Shown here: positions 18,722-34,345 of the stretch, one piece after another
Layout: each line of letters begins with the position of its first letter
How positions within the stretch are numbered: position 1 is the stretch's first letter
Assembly (NCBI GenBank): GCA_029287875.1
Contig: JARFQH010000087.1
Location: 1 to 62,967, forward strand
Origin: Desulfobacteraceae bacterium
GTDB lineage: Bacteria > Desulfobacterota > Desulfobacteria > Desulfobacterales > SG8-13
Direction of reading: 5' to 3'
Length of the DNA stretch: 62,967 nucleotides
Position numbers and translations under genes: made by a program
The notes under the pieces: model-generated
Told to the model about the DNA's origin: nothing
Databases searched by the model: none
What the model saw: the letters and a program-made list of their open reading frames with translations, nothing else

Positions 18722-19681
18722 ATGGACCTGACCAATGAACAACTCATAGAGATGTATATCACTATGAACAAGATTCGAACCTTTGAAAATCGTGTCGCCG
18801 AGCTTTTTGCGGACGGAAAAATTCCGGGTTTTGTCCATCTGTATGTGGGTGAAGAAGCAGTTGCAACCGGGGCTTGTGCGAATCTGACCGACAAGGATTA
18901 CATCACCAGCACCCACCGCGGCCACGGGCATCTCATTGCCAAGGGCGGCGACATCAAGCGGATGATGGCCGAGCTGTTCGGTAAAAATACAGGCTACTGT
19001 AAGGGCAAGGGCGGTTCCATGCATATCGCCGATCTTGATCTTTGCATTATGGTCGCCAACGGTATTGTGGGCGGTGGTCCGCCGCTGGCCGCGGGAGCCG
19101 CACTGGCCTGCCAGTATTTGGACACCGACAGCGTGGCGGTGTGCTTTTTCGGCGACGGCGCCTCCAACCAGGGAACCACCCACGAGGCCATGAATCTGGC
19201 CACCTGCTGGAAGCTTCCGGTGGTGTTTGTCAATGAAAATAACATGTACGGCATCTCATCCTGTACCCTTAATTCCATGTGCGTTCCCAACATCGCCGAC
19301 CGGGCCGCCGCCTATGATATGCCTGGCGTCGTTGTGGATGGAAACGATGTCATTGCGGTTTATGAAGCGGTCGGTGAAGCAATCAAACGGGCCCGCCAGA
19401 GCAAGGGACCGTCTCTGGTTGAATGTAAAACTTATCGCCACCGGGGACATTTTGAAGGCGATCCCTGTGCTTATCGCAACGATGCTGAGCTTGAGGAGTG
19501 GAAAGAAAAAGACCCGATTCCGAGGCTCGAGCAAAAGCTGCTGGAAATGAAACTGCTTACCGACGGTAAAATCAGTGAGATCAAAAGCGCCCTTCAAAAA
19601 GAGTTGGCCGAAGCTGAAAAATTTGCCGAAGAAAGCCCGCTGCCTGATGTCTCCGAACTTACAGAGGATGTTTACTCTTAA
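18722..19681 (+). CDS. acoA: TPP-dependent acetoin/pyruvate dehydrogenase E1 alpha subunit
   Basis: 319 aa. AAGGAGG RBS. TPP-binding region (GSMHI..., FFGDGASNQGTTHEAMNLA, VFVNENNMYGIS). Confidence 0.9.
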   Translation: MDLTNEQLIEMYITMNKIRTFENRVAELFADGKIPGFVHLYVGEEAVATGACANLTDKDYITSTHRGHGHLIAKGGDIKRMMAELFGKNTGYCKGKGGSMHIADLDLCIMVANGIVGGGPPLAAGAALACQYLDTDSVAVCFFGDGASNQGTTHEAMNLATCWKLPVVFVNENNMYGISSCTLNSMCVPNIADRAAAYDMPGVVVDGNDVIAVYEAVGEAIKRARQSKGPSLVECKTYRHRGHFEGDPCAYRNDAELEEWKEKDPIPRLEQKLLEMKLLTDGKISEIKSALQKELAEAEKFAEESPLPDVSELTEDVYS

Positions 19682-19736
19682 GCGCTTAACGGCTTAACAT
19701 CGGGAAAATGGGAGACCCTAAAAGGAGGATTGAAAA

Positions 19737-20711
19737 ATGCCGAATATGACTTTTGCTCAAGCGTTAAACGACGCGCATAAGGTTGAAATGGAGCGTGATC
19801 CCAAAATATATGTCGCCGGTGAGGATGTAGGGGTTTACGGCGGAATTTTTGGTGTAACGGCGGGGCTGCTGGACCAGTTCGGCGACAAGCGGGTGAAGGA
19901 CACCCCCATTACCGAAAGTGCGATCGTCGGGACAGCGGTAGGAGCTGCTACCGTCGGTCTCAGACCGGTCATTGAACTGATGTTTGTCGATTTTATCGGG
20001 GTTGCCCTGGATCAGCTTTATAATCAGGCCGCCAAGATGAAATACATGTTCGGCGGCAAAGCCAGGATCCCCATGGTTATGCGCGCATCCTGCGGTGCCG
20101 GCATCGGGGCCGCGGCCCAGCACTCCCAGTGCCTGGAGGCACTGTTCATGCATCTTCCCGGGCTGAAGGTGGTTATGCCCAGCACACCGTATGACGCCAA
20201 AGGGCTTCTGATCGAAGCGATTCGCGACGACAACCCGGTGGTCTTCCTGGAGCATAAATTACTTTATGCCCTCGAGGGGGAGGTTCCCGACGGCACTTAC
20301 ACCATCCCCTTTGGCCAGGTCGATATCAAGCGCGAGGGCAAGGACGTCACCGTCGTGGCTACGGCCAAAATGGTCCATACCGCGTTGAGCGCTGCCGAAA
20401 AGCTTGCCGCAGACGGGATCAGCGTGGAGGTGGTGGACCCGCGTACGCTTTGCCCCCTGGATGAAGAGGGTATTATCGAATCCGTCAAAAAGACCCACCG
20501 GCTGGTCATCGTGCACGAAGAGGTGAAATTCGCCGGATCAGGCGCTGAAATTTCAGCTATGGTGGCCGAAAAGGCCTTTGATTATCTGGATGCACCAATC
20601 CTGCGGGTGGCCGCACCTTTTTGCCCGGTTCCTTTTTCAGCTCCACTCGAGCAAGCCTTCATACCGAGCGAAGAAAAGATTATTGAAGCGGTCAGAAAGG
20701 TAAGAGAGTGA
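19737..20711 (+). CDS. acoB: Acetoin/pyruvate dehydrogenase E1 beta subunit
   Basis: 324 aa. AAGGAGG RBS. Transketolase-like pyrimidine-binding and C-terminal domains (RVKDTPITESAIVGTAVGAA, DPRTLCPLD). Confidence 0.9.
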   Translation: MPNMTFAQALNDAHKVEMERDPKIYVAGEDVGVYGGIFGVTAGLLDQFGDKRVKDTPITESAIVGTAVGAATVGLRPVIELMFVDFIGVALDQLYNQAAKMKYMFGGKARIPMVMRASCGAGIGAAAQHSQCLEALFMHLPGLKVVMPSTPYDAKGLLIEAIRDDNPVVFLEHKLLYALEGEVPDGTYTIPFGQVDIKREGKDVTVVATAKMVHTALSAAEKLAADGISVEVVDPRTLCPLDEEGIIESVKKTHRLVIVHEEVKFAGSGAEISAMVAEKAFDYLDAPILRVAAPFCPVPFSAPLEQAFIPSEEKIIEAVRKVRE

Positions 20712-20813
20712 TTTGTCCGGTTGGGCGTTCCAACTGGATGGCGCCTTGGAAAGCGGAATTTTACCAGGCCCTAAAATCCAGGTATAAAGAGTTTGAACAA
20801 TAAGGAGAACATC

Positions 20814-20979
20814 ATGAAAGCTGCTGTATGGGTATGGCAGAAAAGATGTCAGGGTAGAAAATGTAACCGAACCCTCTGCACTGACAGACGACACTCTGAG
20901 GAAGTTGCCATATTGTATAAGCTGCCGTTTCTGGTGTGATGCCGTGCTTGATTTTAAACAACCAAAAAGAAAGGCTTGA
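20814..20979 (+). pseudogene. Remnant of a Zn-dependent (MDR) alcohol / 2,3-butanediol dehydrogenase gene, frameshifted and truncated
   Basis: AAGGAGA RBS plus ATG at 20814 gives MKAAVW. After a +1 shift the reading continues YGRKDVRVENVTEPSALTDDTL..YC.SC, the typical N-terminus of MDR dehydrogenases. It terminates after ~50 codons, immediately before acoX. Confidence 0.45.
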
Positions 20980-20981
20980 CG

Positions 20982-22028
20982 ATGTCACTGGTAGGCATTG
21001 TTGCCAATCCAGCCTCCGGGACGGATATTCGCAGGCTGGTTGCATACGGCAGCGTTTTTAACAACCAGGAGAAGGTTAGAATCGTACGGCGTATTCTGCT
21101 TGGCCTGGAGGCGGCAGGTGTGAAGCAGATAAGCTATATGCCAGACTACTACGGCATTGTGGAGCGAGCACTTGATGGCGTGAAAATCGGTTTGGATATT
21201 TCACCGTTGGTGTTTGACACCAAGGCGGATCAAAGGGACTCTGTGCGTGCAGCCGAGATATTGGCGCAAAAGGGCGTCGGCTGTATTGTTACCCTGGGCG
21301 GCGATGGAACCAATCGTGTGGTTGCCAAAGGCACTTGCCAAGTCCCGATTCTTCCTGTCTCAACCGGCACCAACAATGTATTTCCTTACATGATTGAAGG
21401 AACAATTGCAGGGCTGGCAGCCGGCCTGATCGCCACCGGAAAAGTCTCCCGAAAAGACGGTGCTTTTACTTCTACCCGGCTTGAAGTTTTCGTCGAAGGA
21501 CAGCTCGTCGATATCGCTATTGTCGATGCAGTGATTTGTGATGATATTTTCGTCGGCTCACGCGCGGTGTGGAAAATGGATAAAATCAGACAGGTGTTTT
21601 TAAATCGCGCCAGGCCGGCATGCATCGGTTTTTCCTCAATCGGCGGTATGATCCGTATCATCGCTCCTGAGGAGCCTTTCGGTATGCATCTGAAATTAGG
21701 AAAAAATGGACAGCCGATTACGGCGCCCATCGCCCCCGGGATAGTTGAAACCGTGTATGTTGAAAACATGAAGGTGATGGCGCCGGGTGAAGAAGTCGAT
21801 ATCATCTTCAAGCCTTCTGTGGTCGCTCTGGATGGCGAACGGGAAGTGGAAATCAAAAGGGATCAGAAGGCGACCATCCGTCTTTCGGCCTCCGGTCCTT
21901 TGGTTGTGGATGTTGAGCGGACCATGGCATTTGCAATGAAAAGAAAAGTTTTTGCCCCTGAGTTCAGCAGTAGTTCAGAAACATCCCAAAAGGAAAAATA
22001 TAGATTAAAAAACAACGAGCCCAACTGA
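20982..22028 (+). CDS. acoX: ATP-NAD kinase-like protein (AcoX-type acetoin catabolism protein)
   Basis: Track ORF 20976..22028, with the ATG at 20982 (MSLVGIVANPASG). It has the NAD-kinase/DAG-kinase GGDGT motif (IVTLGGDGTNRVV) and follows the E1 genes as acoX does in aco clusters. Confidence 0.7.
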   Translation: MSLVGIVANPASGTDIRRLVAYGSVFNNQEKVRIVRRILLGLEAAGVKQISYMPDYYGIVERALDGVKIGLDISPLVFDTKADQRDSVRAAEILAQKGVGCIVTLGGDGTNRVVAKGTCQVPILPVSTGTNNVFPYMIEGTIAGLAAGLIATGKVSRKDGAFTSTRLEVFVEGQLVDIAIVDAVICDDIFVGSRAVWKMDKIRQVFLNRARPACIGFSSIGGMIRIIAPEEPFGMHLKLGKNGQPITAPIAPGIVETVYVENMKVMAPGEEVDIIFKPSVVALDGEREVEIKRDQKATIRLSASGPLVVDVERTMAFAMKRKVFAPEFSSSSETSQKEKYRLKNNEPN

Positions 22029-22279
22029 AAGAATGTTAGAAAAGAATCTGCGTCAGATGTCGCTTCGCACAGGCGATTATAGCGAAAAGACATCTTTCTT
22101 TATATAGAAATCCTGCCGTTACACACCATATGAGAGCCGGCGCATATTGGCGAAGAGATTGGCGCCGAACCGCGGATGTTTCCCGAATAGCTTTCATGAG
22201 CTATCGTTCTCAACAAAACATGACCTCATATCAAGTATTAATGGTGAAATTTTTGACCAATCCCCCGCGAAATTTGTAT

Positions 22280-23545
22280 ATGAAAGTATTCATTGTTCAG
22301 ATCGTCATTCTTCTCATTCTAATCGGAAGCTCACCGATGGCTGCAGCACAAAACGATGCAGGTGAAGGCTACACCAATTCCCAATGCGCGGAGTGCCATG
22401 AAGAAATGGCGGATGATCATGCGGCGTCGGTCCACAAAGACGTTCAGTGCCTGGAATGTCACGTTCAGGCGGTTGAGGAAAACCATGAAGCGCTGGCGGC
22501 TGTCAATTGTCGTCAATGCCATGCGCCACACGATGAAAAGGTCATTCACGACGCCCACACACGGGTCGCTTGCAAAGCATGCCATCAGAAAGACGGCATC
22601 CCGGTCGCAGAACCTGAAACAGGGTTGGTGATCTTCAGCGGTAACATACTGTCGGGACGAAAATTGTCGCCACATCAAATGGTTGCAGAAAGGGGGGATT
22701 CTCTCTGCCAAAAATGTCATTTTAAGGGCAACGCCTTGGGCGCATCATCCATGATACTGCCCCCTAAAGGCATCCTGTGCATGCCTTGTCATGCCGCCAC
22801 GTTTTCCATCGGGGATCGAACAACCTTTTTGTCCTTGTTGATTTTTGGTGTGGGTATGAGCGGCATGTGCGTCGTCTGGTTCTCGGGAGGCCGCATTAGA
22901 CAAAGTGCGCATGCGCTTCAAGGCGGCTTATCACCGTTGATGGTTGCGATGGTCGCAGATGTGCTTTTCCTTAGACGGCTATTTCGTTTGTCCCCGTGCC
23001 GGTGGCTCATCCATGCGCTGATCTTTTATCCGATTCTCATACGATTCGCATTCGGGGCGTTGACGCTCAGTCTGTCACTGATTGTGCCGGACACGGATCT
23101 GGCCAGAGCCATGCTGGATAAAAACAATCCGTTGCAGGGAATGCTGTTCGACTTGACCGGCCTGATGATTTTCACCGGTGTGGCGGCGGTGCTCTTTCGC
23201 CCCAAAGAAGGCCTACAAACGATCGCCAATCTGCCTAAGCCCGGCCGTACCATGACGGTGCTGCTTGGGCTCATCGTCTTGGTCGGGTTTATCTTGGAAA
23301 GCCTGCGGATTGCCATGACCGGGTGGCCCAGCGGTGCTCAGTATGCCTTTATCGGGTACGGTTTGAGCTTACTGCTGAAAAGCGTGCCAGAAATAACGAC
23401 CATTTACGGCTATGTATGGTATGTTCATACGATTTTGACAGGTGTTTTTATAGCGCTGATCCCTTTTACCCGCATGCTTCATATAATCACTTCGCCGGTG
23501 GTGCTGATGGCCGATGTGCGATCACGAATTCAAGCCAATAACTGA
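22280..23545 (+). CDS. Fusion protein: periplasmic hexahaem cytochrome c plus NarI/DsrM/TmcC-like integral membrane (cytochrome b-type) domain
   Basis: Track ORF 22130..23545 trimmed to the ATG at 22280 (MKVFIVQIVILLILIGSSPMAAAQ is a signal peptide). It has six CXXCH motifs (CAECH, CLECH, CRQCH, CKACH, CQKCH, CMPCH). About 6-7 hydrophobic helices follow, ending in a NarI-family-like PFTRMLHIITSP. Confidence 0.8.
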   Translation: MKVFIVQIVILLILIGSSPMAAAQNDAGEGYTNSQCAECHEEMADDHAASVHKDVQCLECHVQAVEENHEALAAVNCRQCHAPHDEKVIHDAHTRVACKACHQKDGIPVAEPETGLVIFSGNILSGRKLSPHQMVAERGDSLCQKCHFKGNALGASSMILPPKGILCMPCHAATFSIGDRTTFLSLLIFGVGMSGMCVVWFSGGRIRQSAHALQGGLSPLMVAMVADVLFLRRLFRLSPCRWLIHALIFYPILIRFAFGALTLSLSLIVPDTDLARAMLDKNNPLQGMLFDLTGLMIFTGVAAVLFRPKEGLQTIANLPKPGRTMTVLLGLIVLVGFILESLRIAMTGWPSGAQYAFIGYGLSLLLKSVPEITTIYGYVWYVHTILTGVFIALIPFTRMLHIITSPVVLMADVRSRIQANN

Positions 23546-23562
23546 CACGGAGGAAAGATTAC

Positions 23563-23985
23563 ATGGAAATTCAAGGATACAACCTGCCCGAAGATCTGCA
23601 CTATGAAAAAAACCATTACTGGGTGAAAGTCGAGGGCGACATACTAGTGATGGGGATGGACGACTTTGCCCAGCAAATGGCCGGAGATATTGTTTTTGTT
23701 CAGATCCCCTTTTCCGGGAAAAAGCTGAAGGCCGGTAAAAAATTCGCCCAGGTGGAATCGGGCAAATGGTTGGGGAAGGTCTATGCGCCGGTCAATGGCG
23801 AACTGATTGAGGGAAATGAAGCGCTCGAGGCGGAGCCCTCACTCATTAACCGGGATTGCTATGGCAAGGGGTGGATGTTCAAGATAAAGCCTTCAGACAT
23901 GGCCGAACTGAACAACCTGATCCATGACCCTGCGGACATCGAAAAATGGCTTCTGGAAGATATTGAAAAATACAAGCAGGATTAA
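23563..23985 (+). CDS. GcvH-fold lipoyl-carrier protein (LbpA-like; not linked to gcvT/gcvP)
   Basis: 140 aa. H-protein pattern (HYWVKVEGD..., FAQVESGKWLGKVYAPVNGELIEGNEAL, GKGWMFKIK). The lysine in VESGK sits at the lipoyl-lysine position. Confidence 0.85.
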   Translation: MEIQGYNLPEDLHYEKNHYWVKVEGDILVMGMDDFAQQMAGDIVFVQIPFSGKKLKAGKKFAQVESGKWLGKVYAPVNGELIEGNEALEAEPSLINRDCYGKGWMFKIKPSDMAELNNLIHDPADIEKWLLEDIEKYKQD

Positions 23986-23986
23986 C

Positions 23987-25195
23987 ATGGTGAATCGGAA
24001 CTACAGCCTCGGCCAGCTTTTTCAGATAAAGTCGTGTACGAACTGTCAGACTTGCGCTCAAGTGTGCCCGGCGGTTGCAGGCAGCCTTGATGGAAAGCTG
24101 TCGGCCATTTACCGCATCACGACACTTGACCGTATCGTTAAGGCGCGAACGGCATTTTGGCGTAAACTTTTCCGTATCAAAGAACCTACGGCAGAAGAAT
24201 TGCGCGCTTTCAGCGATACGGTTTTCCGCTGCACTTTATGCGGGAACTGCCGTCAGGTTTGTCCGGTGGGGATAGACCTGACGCAACTCTGGCATTCCGC
24301 TCGCAGGGACCTTGTGGACTCTGATGCATATCCCGAAAAAATTGACATAATCCGGGAAAATTTGGATGAAAGCCACAACGTATTTGGAGAGGACAACGAA
24401 GACCGGGCCGAATGGGTGGAAGATATTCCCGATGCTCCGGAACACGGCTATATAAAGGACCGGGCAGACCTGATCTATTTTACCGGTTGCGTATCATCCT
24501 TTTTCCCGATGGCCCAGCAGATTCCCATGGCTCTGGTAAAAATCTTCGATGCGGCCCGGATCGATTTTACCCTGCTGGGCGAAGATGAGTGGTGCTGCGG
24601 CTTTCCCCTGCTCGGTGCCGGGCTCGGCGGCCGACTCGATGGTTTGATTTCAAACAACATCAATGCCGTAAGGGCCAAAGGGGCAACACAGGTGGTATTT
24701 GCCTGCCCTTCTTGTTATCGGATGTGGCAGGAGCATTACCCGTGTGAATTTGAGGTCACTCATGTCACCGAGTTTTTAAGCCGGCTGATCAAATCGGGCC
24801 GCCTTTTGCTTAAAGAACTCGATTTGACGGTGACCTACCATGATCCTTGCGATCTTGGGAGAGGCTCTGGAGAGTACGACGCCCCACGGGATATCATACA
24901 ATCCATTCCAGGAGTGCGATTCGTGGAAATGTCTAACAATCGTGAGCGCTGTAGTTGCTGCGGCGGGGGCGGCAACTTGGAGATGATCGACTCCAAACTG
25001 TCCGCAGATATTGCCGCCAATAAGATGAAAGAAGTAAAAGCAACCGGCGCACAGGTTGTGGTGACTGCTTGCCAGCAGTGCGTGCGCACCATGACCACTT
25101 ATGCCAAAAGGAACAAAATTCCCATCGAAGTCATGGATATCACCCAACTCATACACAAGGCGCTTGCCGGTAAAGATCGCCCGGATAGCGACTAA
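23987..25195 (+). CDS. HdrD/DsrK/TmcB/GlpC-like iron-sulfur protein with two CCG domains
   Basis: Track ORF 23924..25195 trimmed to the ATG at 23987, 1 nt after the gcvH-like stop. It has two ferredoxin motifs (CTNCQTCAQVCP, CTLCGNCRQVCP) and two cysteine-rich CCG modules (FTGCVSSFF...EWCCGFPL; ACPSCYRMW...HDPCDLGRG...CSCCGGGG). There is no signal peptide. Confidence 0.85.
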   Translation: MVNRNYSLGQLFQIKSCTNCQTCAQVCPAVAGSLDGKLSAIYRITTLDRIVKARTAFWRKLFRIKEPTAEELRAFSDTVFRCTLCGNCRQVCPVGIDLTQLWHSARRDLVDSDAYPEKIDIIRENLDESHNVFGEDNEDRAEWVEDIPDAPEHGYIKDRADLIYFTGCVSSFFPMAQQIPMALVKIFDAARIDFTLLGEDEWCCGFPLLGAGLGGRLDGLISNNINAVRAKGATQVVFACPSCYRMWQEHYPCEFEVTHVTEFLSRLIKSGRLLLKELDLTVTYHDPCDLGRGSGEYDAPRDIIQSIPGVRFVEMSNNRERCSCCGGGGNLEMIDSKLSADIAANKMKEVKATGAQVVVTACQQCVRTMTTYAKRNKIPIEVMDITQLIHKALAGKDRPDSD

Positions 25196-25244
25196 GTTGA
25201 TTTTGAATTAAAACGTCTGAGATCGCTTTTAAAAAGGAAGACCG

Positions 25245-25679
25245 ATGGGAGAGTATTACACGACCGTTCGATTGACAGATAAAGGCGCCGATGTCCGCCT
25301 GGGGCAGGTAAACTTTATAGTATCCCGCCGTGATGGCATCGGAACCGGCCATGGTTGTCCAATGGCGTATATGGCCGGCGCACTGGGCAGCTGAGTCGTG
25401 CTGACCCTGTCTGCGGTCGCAGATCACAAGAAGATCACCATGGAAAAACTTGAAGTGCAGGTGGGTTGCATAACCGAAAATGGCATTTCTCCATCAACAC
25501 GCTTTAAGATCAGAATCGATGTCGGCGACGGCTTGACTCAAAGAGAGCGGGCAATTCTTTTTAACTCTGCCCGCAACTGTGAAGTGGGCAAAATCATAGA
25601 CGGGAAAGTTGATATCGATTATTCTTTAAATTCCATCGCATACTTGCAACCATACTGCGAAGATATTAACGATGAATAA
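25245..25679 (+). CDS. OsmC/Ohr-fold peroxiredoxin-like protein with in-frame TGA (candidate selenocysteine) at codon 50
   Basis: AAGGAAG RBS plus ATG at 25245 opens 49 codons (…GHGCPMAYMAGALGS). A TGA follows at 25392-25394. The same frame continues as track ORF 25398..25679 (VVLTLSAVADHKKI...NSARNCEVGKI). The joined product is 144 aa, OsmC size. The TGA falls exactly where OsmC proteins carry the first conserved Cys (..aaLgsC..), and the second conserved Cys is present (ARNCEV). Confidence 0.65.
25410..25423 (+). promoter_or_regulatory. Short SECIS-like hairpin downstream of the in-frame TGA
   Basis: UCUGC-GGUC-GCAGA forms a 5-bp stem, plus a flanking G.U pair, with a GGUC apical loop. The loop starts 21 nt after the UGA. 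The loop sequence and spacing resemble bacterial SECIS apices such as E. coli fdhF, but the stem is short. Confidence 0.4.
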
Positions 25680-25709
25680 GATAGTCCAACTCAATTACTG
25701 AAGTATGCT

Positions 25710-27302
25710 ATGCAAACCTGGAGACTATTAGACACACCGCCCATGACAGCGGCAGAAAACATGGCCATGGACGAAACCCTGCTGGAACTTAAAGGCAAAG
25801 GGAAAAGCCTCAACACCATCCGTTTCCTGCAGTTTTCGCCAAGGGCTGTTTTGGTGGGCTTTCACCAGGCCATTGACGAGGAGATACGCACCGATTATTG
25901 CAGGGCGAACCGGATTGATGTGAACCGTCGCATTACTGGTGGCGGGGCCATCTTTTTCGATGAGAACCAGTTGGGCTGGGAAGTATTCTGTAACAAGTCC
26001 TTTTTTAATACTGCCATCCCCAACGTACATCTCTTCAAAGCCCTGTGTGATCCGGTGGTCACGGCCCTTGCGCTGTTGAACATCAACGCCGAGTTCAGGC
26101 CGCGCAACGACATTGAGGTCAACGGCCGCAAGATTTCGGGCACCGGCGGTACTGAGGCAGACGACGCCTTTATGTTTCAGGGCACCATGCTGGTTGATTT
26201 CGATGTAAACACCATGTTAAGGGCGCTGCGGATTCCGGTGGAAAAGCTCAAGGCCAAGGAGATCAACTCGGTCAAGGATCGTGTCACCTGCCTGAAATGG
26301 GAACTGGGTGATGCCCCGGCCCTTGCGAGCATCAAACAGGCCATCAAGCTCGGATTTGAAAAATGTCTGGATATAAAACTTGAACTGGGAGGATTAACCA
26401 CCCAGGAACAAAAGCGGTTCGAGGAGAAACTGACCCATTTTCGGTCTGCCCGGTGGGTCGACACCGTCAAACCGCGTTTTCAGAAGCGTGAGGCGGTGCA
26501 CGCGTCCTACAAGGCGCCAACGGGCATGGTGCGCTTTACCCTGGTGGTCAACCTGCCTCAAAAGCGTTTGAAAGATATCTATATCACCGGCGATTTTCTC
26601 TCCTTTCCAGGCCGGGCCCTTTACGACCTGGAAGCCGAACTGAGGGGCGCACCCCTTGACCGCGACCATCTGCATGGGATCATCCGCAACTATTTTAACC
26701 AGGGGCGCATCATCATTCCGGGATTGTCCCTCGAAGATTTTGTCAAACCCCTGGATCAGTGTCTTGAGAAGGTTGAAATTTCAAACTACGGCATCCCTTT
26801 GGCGCATTGCAACCTGATCTCCGTTGCCAACGGGTCGTTTGAAGAGGTGATTCGCCGGCGGCCGTCGGTTCTGTTGCTGCCGTATTGCGCCAAACTCACC
26901 GGATGTGATTTAAGATATGAAAAAGGGTGTAAGGTTTGCGGAGAAGCCGGCTGCTCCATCGGACCGGCCTGGGCCATGGGCCGGAGCAAGAAAATGGAAG
27001 TCATCAGCATTATCAGTTTCGAAGACCTTTGGGATGAATTGATGCGGATGAAAGCGACCGGGGTTTCGGCATACATCGGTTGCTGTTGTCAGCCTTTTTT
27101 TTCTAAGCACGTGGATGAGTTCAAAAGATCCGGGTTGCCGGGGATCCTGCTGGATATCGACAATACCACCTGCTATGAGCTGGATCAGGCAAAACAGGCG
27201 TATGCCGGACAGTTCGAAAGCCAGACCAACTTGGATCTGGAACTATTGGAAACGGTACTTCAAACAATTGTAAATGCGCGCGGCAGCAGTGTGACGGCAT
27301 GA
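25710..27302 (+). CDS. Lipoate-protein ligase (LplA catalytic plus accessory domain) fused to a C-terminal Cys-rich DUF116-like domain
   Basis: 530 aa. LplA motifs (NRRITGGGAIFFD, VNGRKISGTGG) and an LplA C-terminal/LplB-like region (YITGDFLSFPGRALYDLE). The last ~155 aa are cysteine-rich (LLLPYCAKLTGCDLRYEKGCKVCGEAGCSIG...IGCCCQPFF), matching my recollection of DUF116. Confidence 0.8.
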   Translation: MQTWRLLDTPPMTAAENMAMDETLLELKGKGKSLNTIRFLQFSPRAVLVGFHQAIDEEIRTDYCRANRIDVNRRITGGGAIFFDENQLGWEVFCNKSFFNTAIPNVHLFKALCDPVVTALALLNINAEFRPRNDIEVNGRKISGTGGTEADDAFMFQGTMLVDFDVNTMLRALRIPVEKLKAKEINSVKDRVTCLKWELGDAPALASIKQAIKLGFEKCLDIKLELGGLTTQEQKRFEEKLTHFRSARWVDTVKPRFQKREAVHASYKAPTGMVRFTLVVNLPQKRLKDIYITGDFLSFPGRALYDLEAELRGAPLDRDHLHGIIRNYFNQGRIIIPGLSLEDFVKPLDQCLEKVEISNYGIPLAHCNLISVANGSFEEVIRRRPSVLLLPYCAKLTGCDLRYEKGCKVCGEAGCSIGPAWAMGRSKKMEVISIISFEDLWDELMRMKATGVSAYIGCCCQPFFSKHVDEFKRSGLPGILLDIDNTTCYELDQAKQAYAGQFESQTNLDLELLETVLQTIVNARGSSVTA

Positions 27303-28363
27303 AGAGAATGGTATCGTGCGACATCCTGGTTGTGGGGGCCGGACCCGCCGGCGGAGCCACGGCATTGGCAGCCACCAGTAGGGGTATGCGGGTGTTGCTT
27401 GTTGATCGCAGGCAGGTTGTTGGGGTGCCTGTCCAATGTGCCGAATACATTCCGGCCATGCTGATGGGCCATCTGGATCTTGACAATTCTTTCATCGTTC
27501 AGCAGATCCGGGGAATGAGGACCTACCTTCCGGATGAACCGGTGACGAAAACACGCGCTCCTGGGTTTACTATCGACAGAGAACTTTTCGATCAGGCCTT
27601 GATCCAAGCGGCTTCAGATGTCGGTGCCAAACTGATGCTCTCCACACGGGCAGTTCAACGGATTGATGATGAAACCATACTGCTCAAACGAAAAAGCGGA
27701 CAGTATCTTACTGTTGGCGCAAAAATAATTGTGGGCGCCGACGGTCCCCGCTCAACGGTCGGTCGCTGGGTGGGGGCCGTCAACCACAACCTGCTGCCGG
27801 GCGTACAGGCCACGCTGCCGCTGACGGAACCAATGGATTGGACCGAAGTTTACTTTGACCCGGAAATTTCTGCTGGCTACGGATGGCTGTTTCCGAAGAA
27901 CCATATAGCCAACGTCGGAATCGGACTAAAGAATATGCCTCGGAGTCAAACCAAAATCGGAGTTGTACTGAATCGATTCATTGCCCGGCTCCGGGCCGCA
28001 GGCAAAGTGACGGGAAATCCGGTGAGGTATGCCGCCGGCTGGATACCCGCGGAACCGGTGCGGCAAGCGGTTCACGGTAACGTGGCGCTGGTTGGCGATG
28101 CCGCCGGCCATACCCATCCCATCACAGGCGCAGGGATATCTAACGCGGTCCTTTGCGGGAAAATGGCGGGTACATGGGCTGCCCGGGCCGTCGAAGAAGG
28201 CGATATGAGTGTGCTTAAACATTATGACCACCAGTGGCAGGATCTTTTCAAAAACACCCTTGACCGTGCCCACAAGCGCCGCCAAACGATGGAATCCGAT
28301 TGGCGAGATTTTTCGCGCACGGTCAAGATGTGTTGGATTGGATTTCGCGAATATTATGCCTAG
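27299..28363 (+). CDS. Geranylgeranyl-reductase-family FAD-dependent oxidoreductase
   Basis: 354 aa. The start overlaps the ligase stop (ATGA). Dinucleotide fold CDILVVGAGPAGGATALAA plus GGR-like VQCAEYIP and GDAAGHTHPITGAGI. Confidence 0.8.
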   Translation: MKRMVSCDILVVGAGPAGGATALAATSRGMRVLLVDRRQVVGVPVQCAEYIPAMLMGHLDLDNSFIVQQIRGMRTYLPDEPVTKTRAPGFTIDRELFDQALIQAASDVGAKLMLSTRAVQRIDDETILLKRKSGQYLTVGAKIIVGADGPRSTVGRWVGAVNHNLLPGVQATLPLTEPMDWTEVYFDPEISAGYGWLFPKNHIANVGIGLKNMPRSQTKIGVVLNRFIARLRAAGKVTGNPVRYAAGWIPAEPVRQAVHGNVALVGDAAGHTHPITGAGISNAVLCGKMAGTWAARAVEEGDMSVLKHYDHQWQDLFKNTLDRAHKRRQTMESDWRDFSRTVKMCWIGFREYYA

Positions 28364-29330
28364 CGTCTCAGCGCTTGCCGATCGATTGCAAGCAGCCCGA
28401 GAACTTTCCTGGCGGCACCTCGGTAAAACCATTGTTTTTTATCTGCCGGGCATGATCAGGCTTGACAGGACCAATGGAAAATATCCGGCACTCTCGATAA
28501 CTGGCGGCGATTGCATCCTTGGGTGCGATCATTGCCAAGGGACGATTCTGAACGGTATGATGCATGTTAAATCCCCTGGCCAACTGGTGTCCCGATGCCG
28601 CCGGTTGGCCGAAAAAGGGCATCACGGCGTGTTGATCAGCGGTGGTTGCAATGCCGGGGGGCAGTTACCGTGGGATCGCTTCATACCGGCGATTCAAGAG
28701 ATCAAAGCCGAAACGGACTTGTTCATCTCAATACACAGCGGTCTGGTCAATGATCCGGACGCCTTCAGGCTGAAACAGGCAGGCGTGGACCAGGCTTTGA
28801 TCGATGTCATCGGCGATGACGAAACGTTTAAAACCGTCTGTCATGTCCCCTTTGGGGTGAATCGTATTGAAGCGGCGATGGCTTCCTTGCATCGGGCCAG
28901 AATTCCAATTGTACCTCATATTGTGTGTGGTGTTCGTTACGGCAAGACACGAGGGGAAAAAAATGCGGTTGCCATGATTTCTCGATTCAAGTTGCAGCAG
29001 GTGGTAATCGTTTCTCTGATGCCCATTCCGGGTACACGGATGGAGAAAGCCCGGCCCCCTGCGCCGGAGACGGTAGCAGATATCATTGCCGAAGTGCGTT
29101 TTGCGATGCCGCATACGCCCATCAGTTTAGGTTGCGCCCGTCAGAGAGGCAACAGCCGCATGGAGGTGATGGCCATCGAAGCCGGGGTCAACCGCCTGGC
29201 CCTGCCCTCCGAAAAGGCCGTGGAAAAGGCCGTGGCTTACGGACTAAGTATTCGGTATCAAAAAACGTGCTGCAGCGTTTCCCGGGACCTTTCAACCCCC
29301 AGCTGGGACGCCCAATTTAGTAGTGAATAA
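28356..29330 (+). CDS. Radical SAM protein, LipS1/LipS2-type (two-component lipoyl synthase family)
   Basis: Track ORF 28209..29330 trimmed to the ATG at 28356, an 8-nt overlap with the upstream stop. It has a CX3CX2C motif (CILGCDHC). It is co-encoded with the LplA-type ligase, the GGR-like protein and a second radical SAM gene, as in LbpA maturation clusters. Confidence 0.7.
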   Translation: MPSVSALADRLQAARELSWRHLGKTIVFYLPGMIRLDRTNGKYPALSITGGDCILGCDHCQGTILNGMMHVKSPGQLVSRCRRLAEKGHHGVLISGGCNAGGQLPWDRFIPAIQEIKAETDLFISIHSGLVNDPDAFRLKQAGVDQALIDVIGDDETFKTVCHVPFGVNRIEAAMASLHRARIPIVPHIVCGVRYGKTRGEKNAVAMISRFKLQQVVIVSLMPIPGTRMEKARPPAPETVADIIAEVRFAMPHTPISLGCARQRGNSRMEVMAIEAGVNRLALPSEKAVEKAVAYGLSIRYQKTCCSVSRDLSTPSWDAQFSSE

Positions 29331-29402
29331 GGCTGCGCATCACGGGGAATCCAGCATCAATTCTGGACGCAGAAAACAGTTGCCATAAAAAAAGACGCCT
29401 TA

Positions 29403-30515
29403 ATGGATCAACACACCTCCAACATTCTCGAAAGTCCGGAATATCTGCGCATGAGTCTGGCTGCGGCCATGACCTTAGGTTTTAAGCCGGGCGTCTTTTA
29501 TAGAAACGCCAGACTATATTGCATCAACCTGTTGCTGACATACCGGGGCGGCTGTGCGGCACGTTGTGCATACTGCGGCCTGTCCAATAGCCGCTCCGGA
29601 AAATATCAGGAAAAGAGCTTTATCCGTGTGACCTGGCCCACCTACCCGACGGCCGAGGTCATCGAAGGGATAGCCGAGCGGCAGCACCGTGTGAAACGGG
29701 TCTGCATCTCCCAGATTACCAACAGGCGCGCGGTCGGAGACACCTTAACGATTTGCCGGCAACTGCGATCCAGTTTCGACATTCCCGTATCCCTGCTAAT
29801 TTCCCCAACCATCGTCAACCAGCGCGATTTGATGGACTTTAAAACCGCTGGAGCCGATAAAATCGGCGTGGCAATCGATCTGGCCACCCCGACCCTGTTC
29901 GACCGATATCGCGGCAGCGGAGTCGACGGACCGCATTGCTGGGACATTTACATGAATCGCTTGGCCGAAGCCATCAAGATCTTCGGGACGCGTAATGCCG
30001 GCTCCCATTTCCTTACGGGAATGGGGGAAACCGAAAAGCAGATGGTGGACATCATCCAAAAGATTCAGGACATGGGGGGCTGGACCCACCTTTTCTCTTT
30101 TTGTCCCGAACCCGGCTCACAGATGGTCGATCATCCCATGCCGGCCATGGATCACTACCGCAGGATTCAGCTTGCTCGATATCTTATCGATAAAAACCTC
30201 AGTCATGCCAAGTTTTTTGTCTATGATAAGAAACAAAAGATTATCGATTTTGGTTTACCGGCGGGCAAACTCGATGCGGTGATCTCGTCCGGCGAACCCT
30301 TTAGAACCAGTGGGTGCGAAGGCTATGACGGTCAGGTCGCCTGCAATCGCCCATTTGCCAATTCAAGACCCGGTCCCGAGATGCGTAACTATCCTTTTCC
30401 ACCGACACAAGCCGATATTGAATTGATTCGCAAACAGTTGCATTTGAAGCCTGTTCGCCCTGAAATGAGTCACCCTCTAAACAGACAGGGCGGAAACTCA
30501 GAAGTTATAAATTGA
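29403..30515 (+). CDS. Radical SAM protein, biotin-synthase-like, LipS1/LipS2-type
   Basis: 370 aa with a CX3CX2C motif (CAARCAYC). It is the second radical SAM gene of the cluster. Confidence 0.7.
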   Translation: MDQHTSNILESPEYLRMSLAAAMTLGFKPGVFYRNARLYCINLLLTYRGGCAARCAYCGLSNSRSGKYQEKSFIRVTWPTYPTAEVIEGIAERQHRVKRVCISQITNRRAVGDTLTICRQLRSSFDIPVSLLISPTIVNQRDLMDFKTAGADKIGVAIDLATPTLFDRYRGSGVDGPHCWDIYMNRLAEAIKIFGTRNAGSHFLTGMGETEKQMVDIIQKIQDMGGWTHLFSFCPEPGSQMVDHPMPAMDHYRRIQLARYLIDKNLSHAKFFVYDKKQKIIDFGLPAGKLDAVISSGEPFRTSGCEGYDGQVACNRPFANSRPGPEMRNYPFPPTQADIELIRKQLHLKPVRPEMSHPLNRQGGNSEVIN

Positions 30516-30564
30516 AATTGAAAGATTGATGAACAAAATTTAAAACTAGTAGGAAGTGGTTAAT

Positions 30565-31275
30565 ATGCCGAAAACAGAAGTGTTTGATAAATATTACAAG
30601 GATTACGACAGCTGGTTTTTTAAGCACGAATTGGCATATAAGGCGGAAATAAATCTAATCAAAAGACTGATTCCAAAGGGAAAGGGAATGGAAGTTGGCG
30701 TCGGGACAGGGAAATTTGCCATCCCGTTTGGCATAAAAGACGGCGTTGAGCCATCTGATAAGATGGGTGAAATTGCTGAAGAAAAAGGCATAAGAGTTGT
30801 TAAAGGTGTTGCGGAATATCTTCCATATAATGACAATATTTTTGATTTTGTTTTGCTTGTTACCACAATCTGTTTTGTAGATGATCCTTTGAAAACATTA
30901 AAAGAAGCACGAAGAGTCATTAAACCAGATGGGTATATAATAATAGGATTTGTGGATAGAGAAAGCATGATCGGTCAAGAATATGAAAAATATAAAGATA
31001 AGAGTAAATTTTACAGTCCCGCCATATTTTATTCATCAAAACAGATAGAGGATTTTCTTGAAAAATCAGGCTTTATCCAGATAGAATCCTATCAAACGCT
31101 CTTCCATCCGCTCAATAAGATAAAAGAGATTGAACCGGTTACAAAAGGTTATGGAAAAGGAGCATTTATCGGAATGAGGGGAAAAAAGAGATCTGGGCTC
31201 GCCAAGTTAAGCCACTTACATAAAATAGAAAAAGAAGAAAAGATTGATAATAATGTCTTAGCCGATCAGTTTTGA
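30565..31275 (+). CDS. Class I SAM-dependent methyltransferase
   Basis: Track ORF 30556..31275, with the ATG at 30565 9 nt after AGGAAG. SAM-binding motif I is MEVGVGTGKF. The stretch is visibly AT-richer than the flanking genes. Confidence 0.8.
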   Translation: MPKTEVFDKYYKDYDSWFFKHELAYKAEINLIKRLIPKGKGMEVGVGTGKFAIPFGIKDGVEPSDKMGEIAEEKGIRVVKGVAEYLPYNDNIFDFVLLVTTICFVDDPLKTLKEARRVIKPDGYIIIGFVDRESMIGQEYEKYKDKSKFYSPAIFYSSKQIEDFLEKSGFIQIESYQTLFHPLNKIKEIEPVTKGYGKGAFIGMRGKKRSGLAKLSHLHKIEKEEKIDNNVLADQF

Positions 31276-31565: not shown

Positions 31566-31955
31566 ATGAGGAGCAAAGAAACTTATGCGGTCGCTGTTCG
31601 ACGTGAATTCGCCGCTCTGCACTACCTGATCGGCGGCGACTGGGGCGCGGAAAATGAACTCCACGAGCACCACTACCTTGTGGAAATCCGTCTCGAAGGC
31701 ACTCAATTGGATCGGCACGGTTACCTGATCGACATCGATGTCGTTACGGCCGCCCTTGAAGGACAGGTCGATCGCTACCGGGGCCAGACGCTCAATTCCC
31801 TGCCCGAATTCGCCGGTCTCAATCCGAGCCTGGAGCACCTGGCCCGGATTATGGGCATGTCGCTGGCCACAACCATCGATACTCACCTACAGGTCCTCAC
31901 GGTCAGAATCTGGGAAAACGAATTCGCCTGGGCCGAATATCGAAAAGAGTTCTGA
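31566..31955 (+). CDS. 6-pyruvoyl-tetrahydropterin synthase / QueD-like protein
   Basis: 129 aa. PTPS-family pattern (FAALHYL...ELHEHHYLVEIRLEG..LDRHGYLIDIDV...VRIWENEFAWAEY). Confidence 0.7.
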   Translation: MRSKETYAVAVRREFAALHYLIGGDWGAENELHEHHYLVEIRLEGTQLDRHGYLIDIDVVTAALEGQVDRYRGQTLNSLPEFAGLNPSLEHLARIMGMSLATTIDTHLQVLTVRIWENEFAWAEYRKEF

Positions 31956-32611: not shown

Positions 32612-34345
32612 TTATTTCACGCGCCCCTCGCGCCAGGCCTTGATCAGATCGTCGTAGTTGACCGTCTCGCCTTTCGGCTTCTCGTTGGCCAGCTTCGCCT
32701 TGGGGGCGCCGGGCTGGTTCAGCCAGTAGGCTTCGTCCTTTTCGGGGTTCAGTTTCGGTCCGCACTCGCCCTGGGTCTTCGAACGGGCGATGCGCTCCAT
32801 CACCCTGTCCATCTCTTTAGCCAGATTGTCCATGGCCGTGTCCACGGACACTTCACCGGAAACCGCCTCGCCGATATTCTGCCACCACAGCTGGGCCAGC
32901 TTCGGATAATCGGGTACGTTGGTGCCCGTCGGCGTCCAGGCCACGCGGGCCGGGCTGCGGTAGAATTCCACCAGACCGCCGAGCTTAGGCGCCCGTTCGG
33001 TAAAGGACTTGTCCCGAATATCGCTGTCGCGGACGGGTGTCAGACCGACGTGAGCCTTTTTCAGGGAGGTCGTTTTTGCCACGCAGAACTGCGCAAAGAG
33101 CCAGGCGGCCTTGCGGCGCTCGAGCGGCGTGCTTTTCATGAACGTCCAGGAGCCGCAATCTTGATAGCCCAGTTTCATGCCTTCTTCCCAGTACGGGCCA
33201 TGAGGCGAGGGGGCCATGCGCCATTTGGGGGTGCCGTCCGCATTGACCGTGGGCCCCGGTTCGACCATGCTGGGAAGAAAGGCGGTATACCAGAAGATCT
33301 GCTGGGCCACACTGCCGTTGGCCAGAAAGGGCAGGTAGGTATAAAAATCCATGCCCAGACTGCCCGGGGGAGCGTATTTTCGTAACCACTCCATATATTT
33401 ACGAAGGGAATACTTGGCCGCCGGGCCGTTGGCGGCCCCGCCGCGGGCCACGGTTGCGCCCACCGGACGGCACCCTTCCACGCGAATGCCCCATTCGTCC
33501 ACCGGCTTGCCATTGGGAAGCCCCTTGTCGCCGGCACCGGCCATGGACAACCAGGCATCGGTAAAGCGCCAGCCCAAATCGGGGGATTTCTTGCCGTAGT
33601 CGTTATGTCCGAAAATGGCCTTACCGTCGATTTCGCGGACATGTTCGGTGAAAAACTCGGCGATATCCTCATAGGCCGACCAGTTGACCGGCACGCCCAG
33701 TTCATAGCCGTAAAGCTCCTTGAACTTTTTCTTGAAGTCCGGGCGGCTGAACCAGTCGTAGCGGAACCAGTAGAGGTTGGCGAACTGCTGATCCGGCAGT
33801 TGATAGAGCTTACCGTCCGGTCCCGTGGTGAAGGATTTGCCCATGAAGTCGTCTACATCCAGGGTCGGCAGGGTCACATCCTTGCCTTCACCGGCCATGA
33901 AGTCCGACAAGGGCACGACATACCCATAGCGGGCGTGGGTGCCGATCAGATCGGAATCGTTGATCCAGCCGTCATAGATGTTTTCGCCCGACGCCCACTG
34001 CGTTTGCAACTTTTCGATCACGTCACCTTCCTGGATCAGGTCGAATGAAACCTGGATGCCGGTGATCTCTTCGAAGGCCTTGGCCAGGACCTTGGCCTCG
34101 TACTCGTGGGTCGCGATGGTCTCGGAGACGACCTTGATGTTCATGCCTTTAAATGGCTTGGCGGCATTGATAAACCACTCCATCTCCTTGAGCTGTTCCT
34201 GCTTGGTCAGGGTCGAGGGCTGGAACTCTTGGTCGACCCATTTCTTGGCGGCCGCCATGTCCGCCATGGCCGGAGCTGCCGCTACGGCCAGCATGACCGT
34301 CACTGCAACGCAAAGAAACATCGTTTTTTGCACTTTCACGTTCAT
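32612..34345 (-). CDS. ABC transporter periplasmic substrate-binding protein (large, ~577 aa; glycerol-transporter type)
   Basis: Track ORF 32612..34534 trimmed to the ATG at 34345 after GGAGGAG. Signal peptide MNVKVQKTMFLCVAVTVMLAVAAAPAMA. It is the last gene of the ATPase-ATPase-permease-permease-DUF2160-SBP operon, next to glpR/glpAB/glpK. Confidence 0.85.
   Translation of the reverse strand: MNVKVQKTMFLCVAVTVMLAVAAAPAMADMAAAKKWVDQEFQPSTLTKQEQLKEMEWFINAAKPFKGMNIKVVSETIATHEYEAKVLAKAFEEITGIQVSFDLIQEGDVIEKLQTQWASGENIYDGWINDSDLIGTHARYGYVVPLSDFMAGEGKDVTLPTLDVDDFMGKSFTTGPDGKLYQLPDQQFANLYWFRYDWFSRPDFKKKFKELYGYELGVPVNWSAYEDIAEFFTEHVREIDGKAIFGHNDYGKKSPDLGWRFTDAWLSMAGAGDKGLPNGKPVDEWGIRVEGCRPVGATVARGGAANGPAAKYSLRKYMEWLRKYAPPGSLGMDFYTYLPFLANGSVAQQIFWYTAFLPSMVEPGPTVNADGTPKWRMAPSPHGPYWEEGMKLGYQDCGSWTFMKSTPLERRKAAWLFAQFCVAKTTSLKKAHVGLTPVRDSDIRDKSFTERAPKLGGLVEFYRSPARVAWTPTGTNVPDYPKLAQLWWQNIGEAVSGEVSVDTAMDNLAKEMDRVMERIARSKTQGECGPKLNPEKDEAYWLNQPGAPKAKLANEKPKGETVNYDDLIKAWREGRVK

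Follow-up and report, generated by a model that had tools for sequence, protein, structure and literature searches.

The window analysed here, a 62,967-nt contig of a Desulfobacteraceae bacterium (JARFQH010000087.1, assembly GCA_029287875.1), carries eight co-directional genes at 22280-30515 that join a membrane redox enzyme to a lipoyl carrier and to genes for lipoylation. The first three encode a fusion of a multihaem cytochrome c with a NarI-type membrane domain, a GcvH-type lipoyl carrier, and an iron-sulfur protein with two CCG domains. They are followed by genes for an OsmC-like protein, a lipoate-protein ligase, and LipT-like, LipS1-like, and LipS2-like proteins, with junctions of +17, +1, +49, +30, -4, -8, and +72 nt. 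A core of cytochrome-NarI, GcvH, CCG, and lipoate ligase genes occurs across 81 distinct loci, all of which are labelled as Desulfobacterota or resemble them. We propose, at about even confidence, that the two redox proteins form a split HdrDE/EtfD-like complex that would oxidise a dedicated dihydrolipoyl-GcvH and pass its electrons to menaquinone and/or periplasmic cytochrome c. The building blocks all belong to known families, and what is new is their combination and the substrate that it implies. Literature searches, which included the genome paper of Desulfotignum phosphitoxidans, found no description of this combination, in line with an earlier note on this DNA that knew of none characterised.

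Relatives of the membrane protein were sought in one genome per species and were present in 224 genomes, from which 80 loci were fetched. Gene order was counted in the 48 distinct loci with at least 4.5 kb of downstream sequence. GcvH adjoins the membrane gene in 44 of these, and both GcvH and the CCG gene are present in 43, spread over several orders of Desulfobacterota. Orthologous CCG proteins share 53-82% identity across loci. The gap between the GcvH and CCG genes has a median of 2 nt, and 35 of 54 such gaps lie within -17 to +9 nt. Of 38 informative loci, 29 continue with a lipoate ligase gene, either as part of an Lpl(AB)-DUF116, LipT, LipS1, and LipS2 set or as a stand-alone ligase of the LplA/LplB type. 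The suggestion in the earlier note of a membrane-coupled oxidoreductase acting on a lipoyl carrier thus gains support from comparative genomics. The order that it proposed to survey (cytochrome-gcvH-CCG-osmC) is kept for the first three genes, but the OsmC-like gene is present in 11 of the 38 informative loci. The window itself matches contigs of sediment-type metagenomes (L001-L006), and its named relatives are Desulfobacterales and other Desulfobacterota.

Coordinates and profile searches bore out the description of the eight genes in the earlier note, including the junctions, the six haem motifs, the CCG motifs, the lipoyl-lysine, and an in-frame TGA in the OsmC-like gene. Its family assignments also stood in Pfam and NCBIfam searches, with Nitrate_red_gam, CCG, GCV_H, OsmC, LplA-B_cat, DUF116, and GG-reductase recovered and LipS1 and LipS2 as best matches. 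Among the scanned long open reading frames (ORFs) of the window there was no hdrA/B/C, gcvT, or gcvP, as it had reported.

The CCG protein carries two CX2CX2CX3CP motifs (C17/20/23/27 and C82/85/88/92) and two complete five-Cys CCG motifs of the form CXnCCGXnCX2C (C168/203/204/240/243 and C288/324/325/362/365). All 18 cluster Cys residues are invariant in the window protein and 48 orthologues, with C362 and C365 falling in the gap of one partial sequence. Two CCG motifs are the signature of HdrD and HdrB, which hold two non-cubane clusters and perform homolytic disulfide chemistry, whereas DsrK, TmcB, and HmcF have one CCG motif and a conserved Cys in T/GECGH (PMC10861901). No ECGH motif was found in the sequence of the window CCG protein, and its NCBIfam scores are low for all three families (DsrK, 105 vs 400; TmcB, 91.5 vs 735; HmcF, 79 vs 750). 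Membership in DsrK/TmcB was rejected on the two CCG motifs and on profile scores far below the cut-offs. By motif count the subunit is HdrD-like, and the label "Tmc/DsrMK-like" that it had been given is imprecise.

The best sequence match of the CCG protein in the PDB is EtfD (9ojn_A, E 1e-37), followed by HdrB. In EtfD of Mycobacterium smegmatis the CCG clusters are shielded and non-catalytic, with Thr in place of one Cys and a His that completes the other cluster (PMC13083937). The alignment places CCG and CPSC in the window protein where EtfD has CTG and CPHC. Because both replacements are absent, the window protein keeps the Hdr-like, potentially substrate-reactive cluster state. The nearest CCG paralogues have about 44% identity, and one of them lies beside a NarI-like gene with no gcvH between the two. 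Paralogue contexts were on contigs shorter than 3 kb with only one readable upstream flank, and from this one flank the insertion of gcvH may be specific to the CCG family described here. Another CCG paralogue, of ~670 residues, has an N-terminal hydrophobic extension that is NarI-like by eye.

The GcvH protein matches Pfam GCV_H (E 8e-40) and passes both NCBIfam cut-offs (TIGR00527 gcvH, 119 vs 115.85; NF002270 PRK01202, 144.2 vs 117). Its lipoyl lysine lies in the motif [VIML]ESGKW, which is present in 61 of the 61 orthologues whose alignment reaches that site. The LbpA carriers of sHdr systems are defined by two strictly conserved Cys residues near the N and C termini together with shdr linkage (PMC6067878). 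In the window protein the only Cys is C98, which is close to neither end. With this Cys pair missing and no shdr genes beside it, the carrier is not LbpA, and membership in the LbpA/sHdr group was ruled out. GcvH never adjoins gcvT or gcvP in the loci examined, and neither gene was found among the scanned long ORFs of the window or among the called genes of L001-L009, loci that come from four organisms.

The membrane protein consists of a signal peptide, a hexahaem cytochrome c domain, and a five-helix cytochrome b domain of the NarI/HdrE/EtfD kind. Both Pfam matches are marginal passes of their cut-offs (Cytochrom_c3_2, 26.2 vs 25; Nitrate_red_gam, 23.7 vs 22.9). Across 15 homologues, all six CXXCH motifs are kept without change, as are the matching distal His residues. 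A NarI-type domain has its N terminus in the periplasm, and since the cytochrome c domain is joined to that end, the topology makes the haem c domain periplasmic. Invariant His residues in the membrane domain are H245 in transmembrane helix 2 and H383 and H401 in transmembrane helix 5, the latter two 18 residues apart as in NarI. The AlphaFold2 model has a mean predicted local distance difference test score (pLDDT) of 53.9 and is poor in the haem c domain, but its membrane part is usable (pLDDT 65-88). A fold search with the membrane domain returned EtfD (9ojn) with a probability of 1.00 and NarI (1q16_C) with 0.87. Gene callers give the cytochrome gene lengths of 471, 434, or 421 amino acids (aa), with starts at 22130-22280, and homologue alignment favours the MK at 22280, which is followed by a signal-peptide-like segment.

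A co-directional cluster at 13762-22028 lies directly 5' of the eight genes and encodes a dihydrolipoyl acyltransferase (E2), a dihydrolipoyl dehydrogenase (E3), a LipB/LipA fusion, the alpha and beta subunits of a thiamine pyrophosphate-dependent dehydrogenase (E1), and an AcoX-like protein. The best NCBIfam matches of the E2 are the pyruvate and 2-oxoglutarate dehydrogenase E2 models, under their cut-offs. The acoX gene is typical of acetoin dehydrogenase (aco) clusters (PMC3543383), and in relatives the whole array closes with an AcoR-type sigma-54 activator. The earlier note had the eight genes spaced correctly as a putative operon but overlooked this cluster, and its interpretation changes for that reason. 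With the E2-to-AcoX cluster directly upstream and in the same direction, the eight genes are the distal part of an acetoin/pyruvate-type dehydrogenase locus. This E3-containing neighbourhood is the most informative context of the module, and the direction to which it points is oxidation of dihydrolipoyl groups.

Three classes of genomic context were distinguished, each with a cytoplasmic dehydrogenase. Class A has the aco-type E2-E3-LipBA-E1ab-AcoX array and includes the window, D. phosphitoxidans, and about a dozen other loci, with hosts such as a 7.85-Mb "Desulfobacterium" chromosome, a Desulfomonilaceae genome, and metagenome-assembled genomes of Syntrophobacteraceae and Desulfovibrionaceae. 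AcoX, a DUF6506 protein, and the cytochrome are encoded in D. phosphitoxidans with junctions of +25 and -4 nt, and this spacing argues for co-transcription of AcoX with the module in that organism. In relatives (L007, 9699-10004; L008, 9699-10004) a DUF6506 ORF lies directly 5' of the cytochrome gene and overlaps it, and it is absent from the 251-nt gap 5' of the cytochrome gene in the window. Class B has another E1a-E1b-E2-E3 set (about 50% identity), with a TRAP transporter and a short-chain dehydrogenase/reductase encoded ahead of it. Class C is linked to lactate; in it the membrane gene and gcvH are separated by genes for a GlcD-type FAD dehydrogenase and for the two-CCG Fe-S subunit that belongs to this dehydrogenase, with LUD-domain L-lactate dehydrogenase genes (LutB/LdhH-like), a TRAP transporter, and LarA as neighbours. 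The position of these dehydrogenase genes suggests that the membrane anchor takes electrons from the cytoplasm. No etfAB genes occur among the called genes of loci L001-L009.

A longer, paralogous form of the membrane protein, of about 590-640 aa, occurs in class C loci and in the inspected locus of class B. Eleven CXXCH motifs were counted in three of these longer proteins (L031, L048, and the N-terminally cut L038). At L038 and L048 the longer gene stands alone beside hisS/aspS-like genes, without a gcvH or CCG gene.

The mechanism that we favour may be set out as follows; in it we infer the substrate, the direction of flow, the acceptor, and the role of E3. The membrane protein and the CCG protein would form a redox complex of two polypeptides on the same plan as methanogen HdrDE and mycobacterial EtfD, with haem b bound in the five NarI-type helices. 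Its substrate would be the lipoylated GcvH that is encoded between the two subunits. Dihydrolipoyl groups would be made by the adjacent lipoyl-dependent dehydrogenases, which are of the acetoin/pyruvate E1-E2-E3 type in the window and of a second E1E2E3 type elsewhere. E3, the natural partner of H proteins, could equilibrate E2-dihydrolipoyl, NADH, and lipoyl-GcvH. The CCG subunit would then re-oxidise dihydrolipoyl-GcvH to the disulfide, and the electrons would leave by way of the [4Fe-4S] clusters and haem b for menaquinone, by the hexahaem domain for the cytochrome c pool of the periplasm, or by both. In effect the module would be a respiratory dihydrolipoyl-protein dehydrogenase, by which electrons enter the membrane instead of remaining as NADH. 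GcvH would owe its lipoylation to the ligase encoded downstream or to the complete Lpl(AB)-LipT-LipS1-LipS2 set, and the optional selenocysteine-containing OsmC-like protein most likely reduces hydroperoxides with dihydrolipoyl-GcvH.

The outward direction is favoured because the contexts are catabolic, because EtfD works outward, and because of the redox potentials. Lipoamide has a potential of about -290 mV and menaquinone of about -75 mV. Only the oxidative direction is favourable with a quinone partner.

Several observations weigh against this mechanism. An E3 is already encoded at the locus, so NAD+ could take all of the electrons, and the need for a bypass is unexplained. With a potential of about -190 mV, lactate is a poor reductant for lipoyl groups, and GcvH in the lactate clusters would therefore have to be fed from elsewhere. 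The membrane domain has no more than three invariant His residues, with the second His of transmembrane helix 2 missing and no evident fourth ligand, so that a pair of b haems and a quinone site are only putative. Many two-CCG proteins, such as GlcF, GlpC, and LutA, are not disulfide-active as far as is known, and the CCG partner of the D-lactate dehydrogenase in class C loci likewise keeps all ten Cys residues. A count of two CCG motifs thus permits a disulfide-type substrate and does not prove one. Three gaps of 251-295 nt lie within the aco genes and between them and the module, so that co-transcription with the aco genes is only putative in this organism. HdrDE and Tmc work the other way round and deliver electrons from the membrane or periplasm to a disulfide in the cytoplasm.

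In a broader and somewhat more tentative form of the proposal, lipoyl-GcvH may be a free-standing dithiol/disulfide carrier of anaerobic respiration, in a role like that of DsrC or CoM-S-S-CoB (the heterodisulfide of coenzymes M and B). Several cytoplasmic dehydrogenases would load this carrier, and a dedicated HdrDE-like membrane complex with its fused cytochrome c would pass the electrons on to menaquinone or to cytochromes of the periplasm. The E1E2E3 complexes would load GcvH through E3, and the CCG-containing D-lactate dehydrogenase could possibly do so too.

It is conceivable, though in our judgement unlikely, that the same complex runs inward. Periplasmic cytochrome c3, reduced from H2 or formate, or a low-potential quinol would then reduce lipoyl-GcvH, which would serve E3-made NADH and peroxide reduction by OsmC. 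The periplasmic hexahaem domain is suited to docking of cytochrome c3, and E3, GcvH, and OsmC are all encoded within the window. The architecture resembles that of HdrDE and Tmc, both reducers of a cytoplasmic disulfide (PMC10861901, PMC4046663), and the sHdr model has CCG clusters that reduce lipoyl-LbpA before E3 makes NADH (PMC6067878). Lipoylated proteins are also known to reduce Ohr/OsmC, and an OsmC/H/L system is mentioned for Trichomonas (PMC5384416). Peroxide reduction is not the main purpose of the module, however, as the OsmC-like gene is missing from 27 of the 38 informative loci. The surrounding catabolic dehydrogenase clusters are sources of reducing equivalents and not sinks, EtfD as the closest homologue with a characterised function operates outward, and menaquinol is thermodynamically unable to reduce a lipoyl group.

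There is a smaller chance that two unrelated neighbours stand side by side, with GcvH and the ligase/LipS proteins acting as a lipoyl relay for E2 and cytochrome-NarI/CCG as a separate respiratory module, for example a dehydrogenase anchor. A GcvH-dependent lipoyl relay is established in Bacillus subtilis (summarised in PMC10332631), and two lipoylation systems lie beside the E2 gene here. The lactate clusters put a dehydrogenase and its own CCG subunit first after the membrane protein, and the few loci with a membrane gene but no nearby gcvH or CCG gene (L038, L048) would also fit. Yet a LipB-LipA fusion is already present for E2, and gcvH separates the two redox genes here, 17 nt after the first and 1 nt before the second, and almost abuts the CCG gene in most genomes. 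The gcvH/CCG pair is kept in class C loci that have no E2 within 10 kb. The nearest readable CCG paralogue, at about 44% identity and on one flank only, stands beside a NarI-like gene that has no gcvH. Finally, it is very improbable that GcvH is simply the ordinary H protein of glycine cleavage or of the reductive glycine system, its position being incidental or the complex powering glycine synthesis: it passes the GcvH cut-offs and lacks the LbpA-specific Cys residues, but this explanation was set aside because gcvT and gcvP are absent from the scanned long ORFs of the window and from the called loci of four organisms, ESGKW is invariant, and linkage to the CCG gene is constant in >40 genomes.

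The locus holds two lipoylation systems, a LipB-LipA fusion with the E2 and E3 genes and an Lpl(AB) set with gcvH. We infer that this layout would fit a dedicated maturation route for GcvH. The genes for the ligase, LipT, LipS1, and LipS2 are adjacent, and the LipS1-like and LipS2-like proteins have the correct families as best matches with scores under the curated cut-offs. The ligase also has Lip_prot_lig_C at 22.5 bits, below the Pfam cut-off of 24, while its NCBIfam lipoyltrans match is below cut-off and LplAB scores 126 vs 550. The families named in the earlier note were correct, but its tie to the LbpA carriers of sHdr systems was too narrow. The sLpl(AB)/LipT/LipS1/LipS2 set is not confined to sHdr sulfur oxidisers (PMC10332631), and the carrier here lacks the LbpA Cys residues (PMC6067878). 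The role of LipT is described in PMC10332631. A supply of electrons from the membrane complex to LipS1/S2 was considered and rejected, as the core persists where only the ligase is present.

The C-terminal DUF116 domain occupies residues about 381-490 of the ligase. The same LplAB-DUF116 fusion occurs in L007-L009 (L007, 13471-15075; L008, 13468-15069), and we saw no mention of it in the parts consulted of the sLpl(AB) paper (PMC10332631). In a Desulfomonilaceae locus (L009/L024, 13874-16527), ligase and LipT genes are present with no LipS1 or LipS2 gene after them and no OsmC-like ORF detected, and the CCG gene is called short (344 aa).

The OsmC-like gene has TGA at column 50 in ten species-level loci and TGT or TGC in six, and the second catalytic Cys (Cys112) and an RE motif are invariant in all 16 OsmC-like homologues. 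All TGA forms carry a hairpin after the UGA, of which the Cys forms have only a degenerate version. Across the ten sequences, 96.7% of cells are paired and two pairs have changed on both sides, values reached by 3 of 500 shuffles. The GGUC loop of this hairpin resembles the loop of the selenocysteine insertion sequence (SECIS) of Escherichia coli fdhF. Because selenocysteine (Sec) and Cys homologues pair at this position and the hairpin is tied to the TGA forms, the OsmC-like protein is, on this comparative evidence, a genuine selenoprotein. Present in 11 of 38 loci, its gene is accessory and does not define what the module is for. Lipoylated proteins serve as reductants of Ohr/OsmC enzymes, and a peroxidase system of OsmC, H-protein, and L-protein is mentioned for Trichomonas (PMC5384416). 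The earlier note's view of peroxide reduction as an output is reasonable for this one gene but is not general.

Comparison with characterised systems places the putative complex nearest to HdrDE and EtfD. HdrDE of Methanosarcina likewise combines a b-type anchor of the NarI/HdrE kind with a cytoplasmic subunit that has two [4Fe-4S] ferredoxin motifs and two five-Cys CCG motifs (PMC10861901), a likeness in motifs. The substrate is a disulfide there and is presumed to be one here. HdrDE reduces CoM-S-S-CoB with electrons from methanophenazine, whereas the presumed substrate here is a protein-bound lipoyl dithiolane. The host here is bacterial and has no known coenzyme M or B, which makes CoM-S-S-CoB an unlikely substrate. 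The module also differs by the added periplasmic hexahaem cytochrome c and by the likely oxidation of a thiol rather than reduction of a disulfide. EtfD belongs to the electron-transfer flavoprotein (ETF):(methyl)menaquinone oxidoreductases; the mycobacterial enzyme (PDB 9ojn) is the best solved match for both subunits and combines a membrane part of five transmembrane helices, which bind haem b, with two [4Fe-4S] and two CCG domains. The enzyme passes electrons from the soluble cytoplasmic carrier ETF to menaquinone (PMC13083937). Unlike the window proteins, it is a single polypeptide without a cytochrome c domain, its clusters are non-catalytic, with CTG and CPHC where the window protein has CCG and CPSC, and the partner gene here is gcvH rather than etfAB.

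Like the module, the transmembrane complexes TmcABCD, HmcABCDEF, and DsrMK(JOP) pair a multihaem cytochrome c in the periplasm with a NarI-like cytochrome b and with a CCG protein on the cytoplasmic side. These complexes are thought to perform thiol/disulfide chemistry on DsrC, whereas the linked small protein here is GcvH. The module is unlike them in the fusion of the cytochrome to the membrane subunit, in having two CCG motifs, and in that no TmcD was seen. The sHdr-LbpA systems also couple a CCG enzyme genetically to a GcvH-like lipoyl carrier and to a set of ligase, radical-SAM (S-adenosylmethionine) synthase, and LipT genes, and E3 has been proposed as their link to NAD (PMC6067878, PMC10332631). 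In contrast, there are no sHdrA/B/C, DsrE, TusA, or rhodanese genes here, the carrier has no LbpA Cys pair and scores as GcvH, the ligase has the extra DUF116 domain, and the enzyme would be membrane-bound, of the HdrDE type, and placed in the carbon catabolism of Desulfobacterota. The lipoyl-dependent OsmC/Ohr peroxidases, including that of Trichomonas hydrogenosomes, have in common with the module the OsmC fold, both catalytic positions, and a co-encoded lipoyl H protein and E3; the protein here has selenocysteine at the first catalytic position, its gene is optional, and its activity is predicted. The genome paper of Pelobacter carbinolicus proposed a link between lipoyl-"LarG", dihydrolipoamide dehydrogenase, and an Act complex (PMC3543383). 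That genome-based hypothesis also has a GcvH-like lipoyl protein as a disulfide carrier between a membrane complex and NAD, but its membrane complex is alternative complex III and not NarI/CCG.

Table 1. Features of the dehydrogenase cluster, the eight-gene unit, and the longer membrane-protein form
Feature	Coordinates	Strand	Evidence
E2 dihydrolipoyl acyltransferase	13762-15093	+	Pfam Biotin_lipoyl, E3_binding, 2-oxoacid_dh
E3 dihydrolipoyl dehydrogenase	15118-16494	+	NCBIfam TIGR01350 lipoamide_DH, 444 bits vs 408.8; Pfam Pyr_redox_2, Pyr_redox_dim
LipB-LipA fusion (octanoyltransferase and lipoyl synthase)	16445-18145	+	NCBIfam lipA (357 bits) and lipB (134 bits), each over its cut-off
Small Lin0512-family ORF	18214-18426	+	Pfam PF09585 on called genes of L001-L009
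E1 alpha, thiamine pyrophosphate-dependent dehydrogenase	18722-19681	+	Pfam E1_dh, E 1e-88; NCBIfam PDH_E1_alph_y, 372 bits vs 394
E1 beta	19737-20711	+	Pfam Transket_pyr, Transketolase_C; NCBIfam PRK09212, 409 bits vs 321
AcoX-like protein, NAD-kinase fold	20982-22028	+	Pfam NAD_kinase
Membrane cytochrome-NarI fusion	22280-23545	+	Pfam Cytochrom_c3_2, Nitrate_red_gam; motifs; fold search
GcvH-type lipoyl carrier, lipoyl-Lys68 in VESGKW	23563-23985	+	Pfam GCV_H; NCBIfam gcvH, PRK01202
Cytoplasmic HdrD-type Fe-S (CCG) protein	23987-25195	+	Pfam CCG (two), Fer4_8
OsmC-like selenoprotein, Sec50 and Cys112	25245-25679	+	Pfam OsmC, 45.4 bits vs cut-off 27.5
In-frame UGA read as selenocysteine (codon 50)	25392-25394	+	Alignment with relatives
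SECIS-like hairpin GUCUGC-GGUC-GCAGAU	25409-25424	+	Begins 14 nt past the UGA
Lpl(AB)-type lipoate-protein ligase with C-terminal Cys-rich DUF116	25710-27302	+	Pfam LplA-B_cat, DUF116
LipT-like FAD oxidoreductase, geranylgeranyl-reductase family	27299-28363	+	NCBIfam GG-red-SF, 204.8 vs 158.8
LipS1-like radical SAM lipoyl synthase subunit	28356-29330	+	NCBIfam LipS1, 218.6 bits vs 230, E 1e-64
LipS2-like radical SAM lipoyl synthase subunit	29403-30515	+	NCBIfam LipS2, 217 bits vs 270, E 4e-64
Class I SAM methyltransferase, 40 nt past LipS2	30556-31275	+	Pfam Methyltransf_11
Longer membrane-protein form, L050	9371-11287		
Longer membrane-protein form, L031	9443-11284		
Longer membrane-protein form, L048	795-2597		
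Longer membrane-protein form, L063	9377-11146		

The limits of the unit were examined on both sides (Table 1). Scans of 12.8-32.6 kb for sigma-70 promoters and intrinsic terminators gave counts not above those in shuffled sequence, and no convincing terminator on the + strand was found inside the cluster in this interval. Matches to the sigma-54 consensus were rarer than expected by chance, inspection of the three larger intergenic gaps by eye gave no firm promoter or terminator, and no Rfam family matched in the window, including the SECIS region. The start of the LipB-LipA gene is ambiguous, with a long form that overlaps E3 by 50 nt and a 545-aa form from 16508 that callers also use. The Lin0512-family ORF between LipBA and E1 alpha keeps its position in relatives. 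At the 3' end, the SAM methyltransferase is possibly a ninth gene, with the unit running past 30515, and a methyltransferase with 79-89% identity also lies 3' of LipS2 in L013 and L018. The next gene (31566-31955) is 6-pyruvoyl-tetrahydropterin-synthase-like, and the GC content is 0.447 across 30-32 kb compared with about 0.50-0.55 within the cluster.

Further downstream lies a locus of the glycerol/glycerol-3-phosphate type (32612-46092) with genes for a solute-binding protein and an ABC transporter, a DeoR regulator, two FAD oxidoreductases, a glycerol kinase, and an Fe-alcohol dehydrogenase. The FAD oxidoreductases (40253-43148) match only generic FAD families in Pfam, and we take them to be GlpA/GlpB-like; no CCG subunit of the GlpC type was seen in this locus. 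Upstream of the dehydrogenase cluster and on the opposite strand is a resistance-nodulation-division efflux system (AcrB-like, HlyD-like, and outer membrane factor; 7688-12887), accompanied by a divergent regulator of the TetR/CecR type.

How electrons from cytoplasmic oxidations enter the membrane in sulfate reducers and their syntrophic relatives is only partly understood, and most HdrD-like CCG proteins are without a known physiological partner. The genetics of this module name a likely partner, lipoylated GcvH, and at least one cultured organism, D. phosphitoxidans, carries the module. If the proposed mechanism is true, lipoate would have a new function beyond the five classical complexes and sHdr, the module would be a respiratory alternative or addition to E3, and a large family of "Hdr-like" membrane complexes would gain a substrate. 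A lipoyl-linked OsmC selenoprotein would also join the known contexts of the selenoproteome. Should GcvH act as a free-standing carrier, this would be a sixth and quite different role of protein-bound lipoate and a new entry into electron transport in sulfate reducers and syntrophs.

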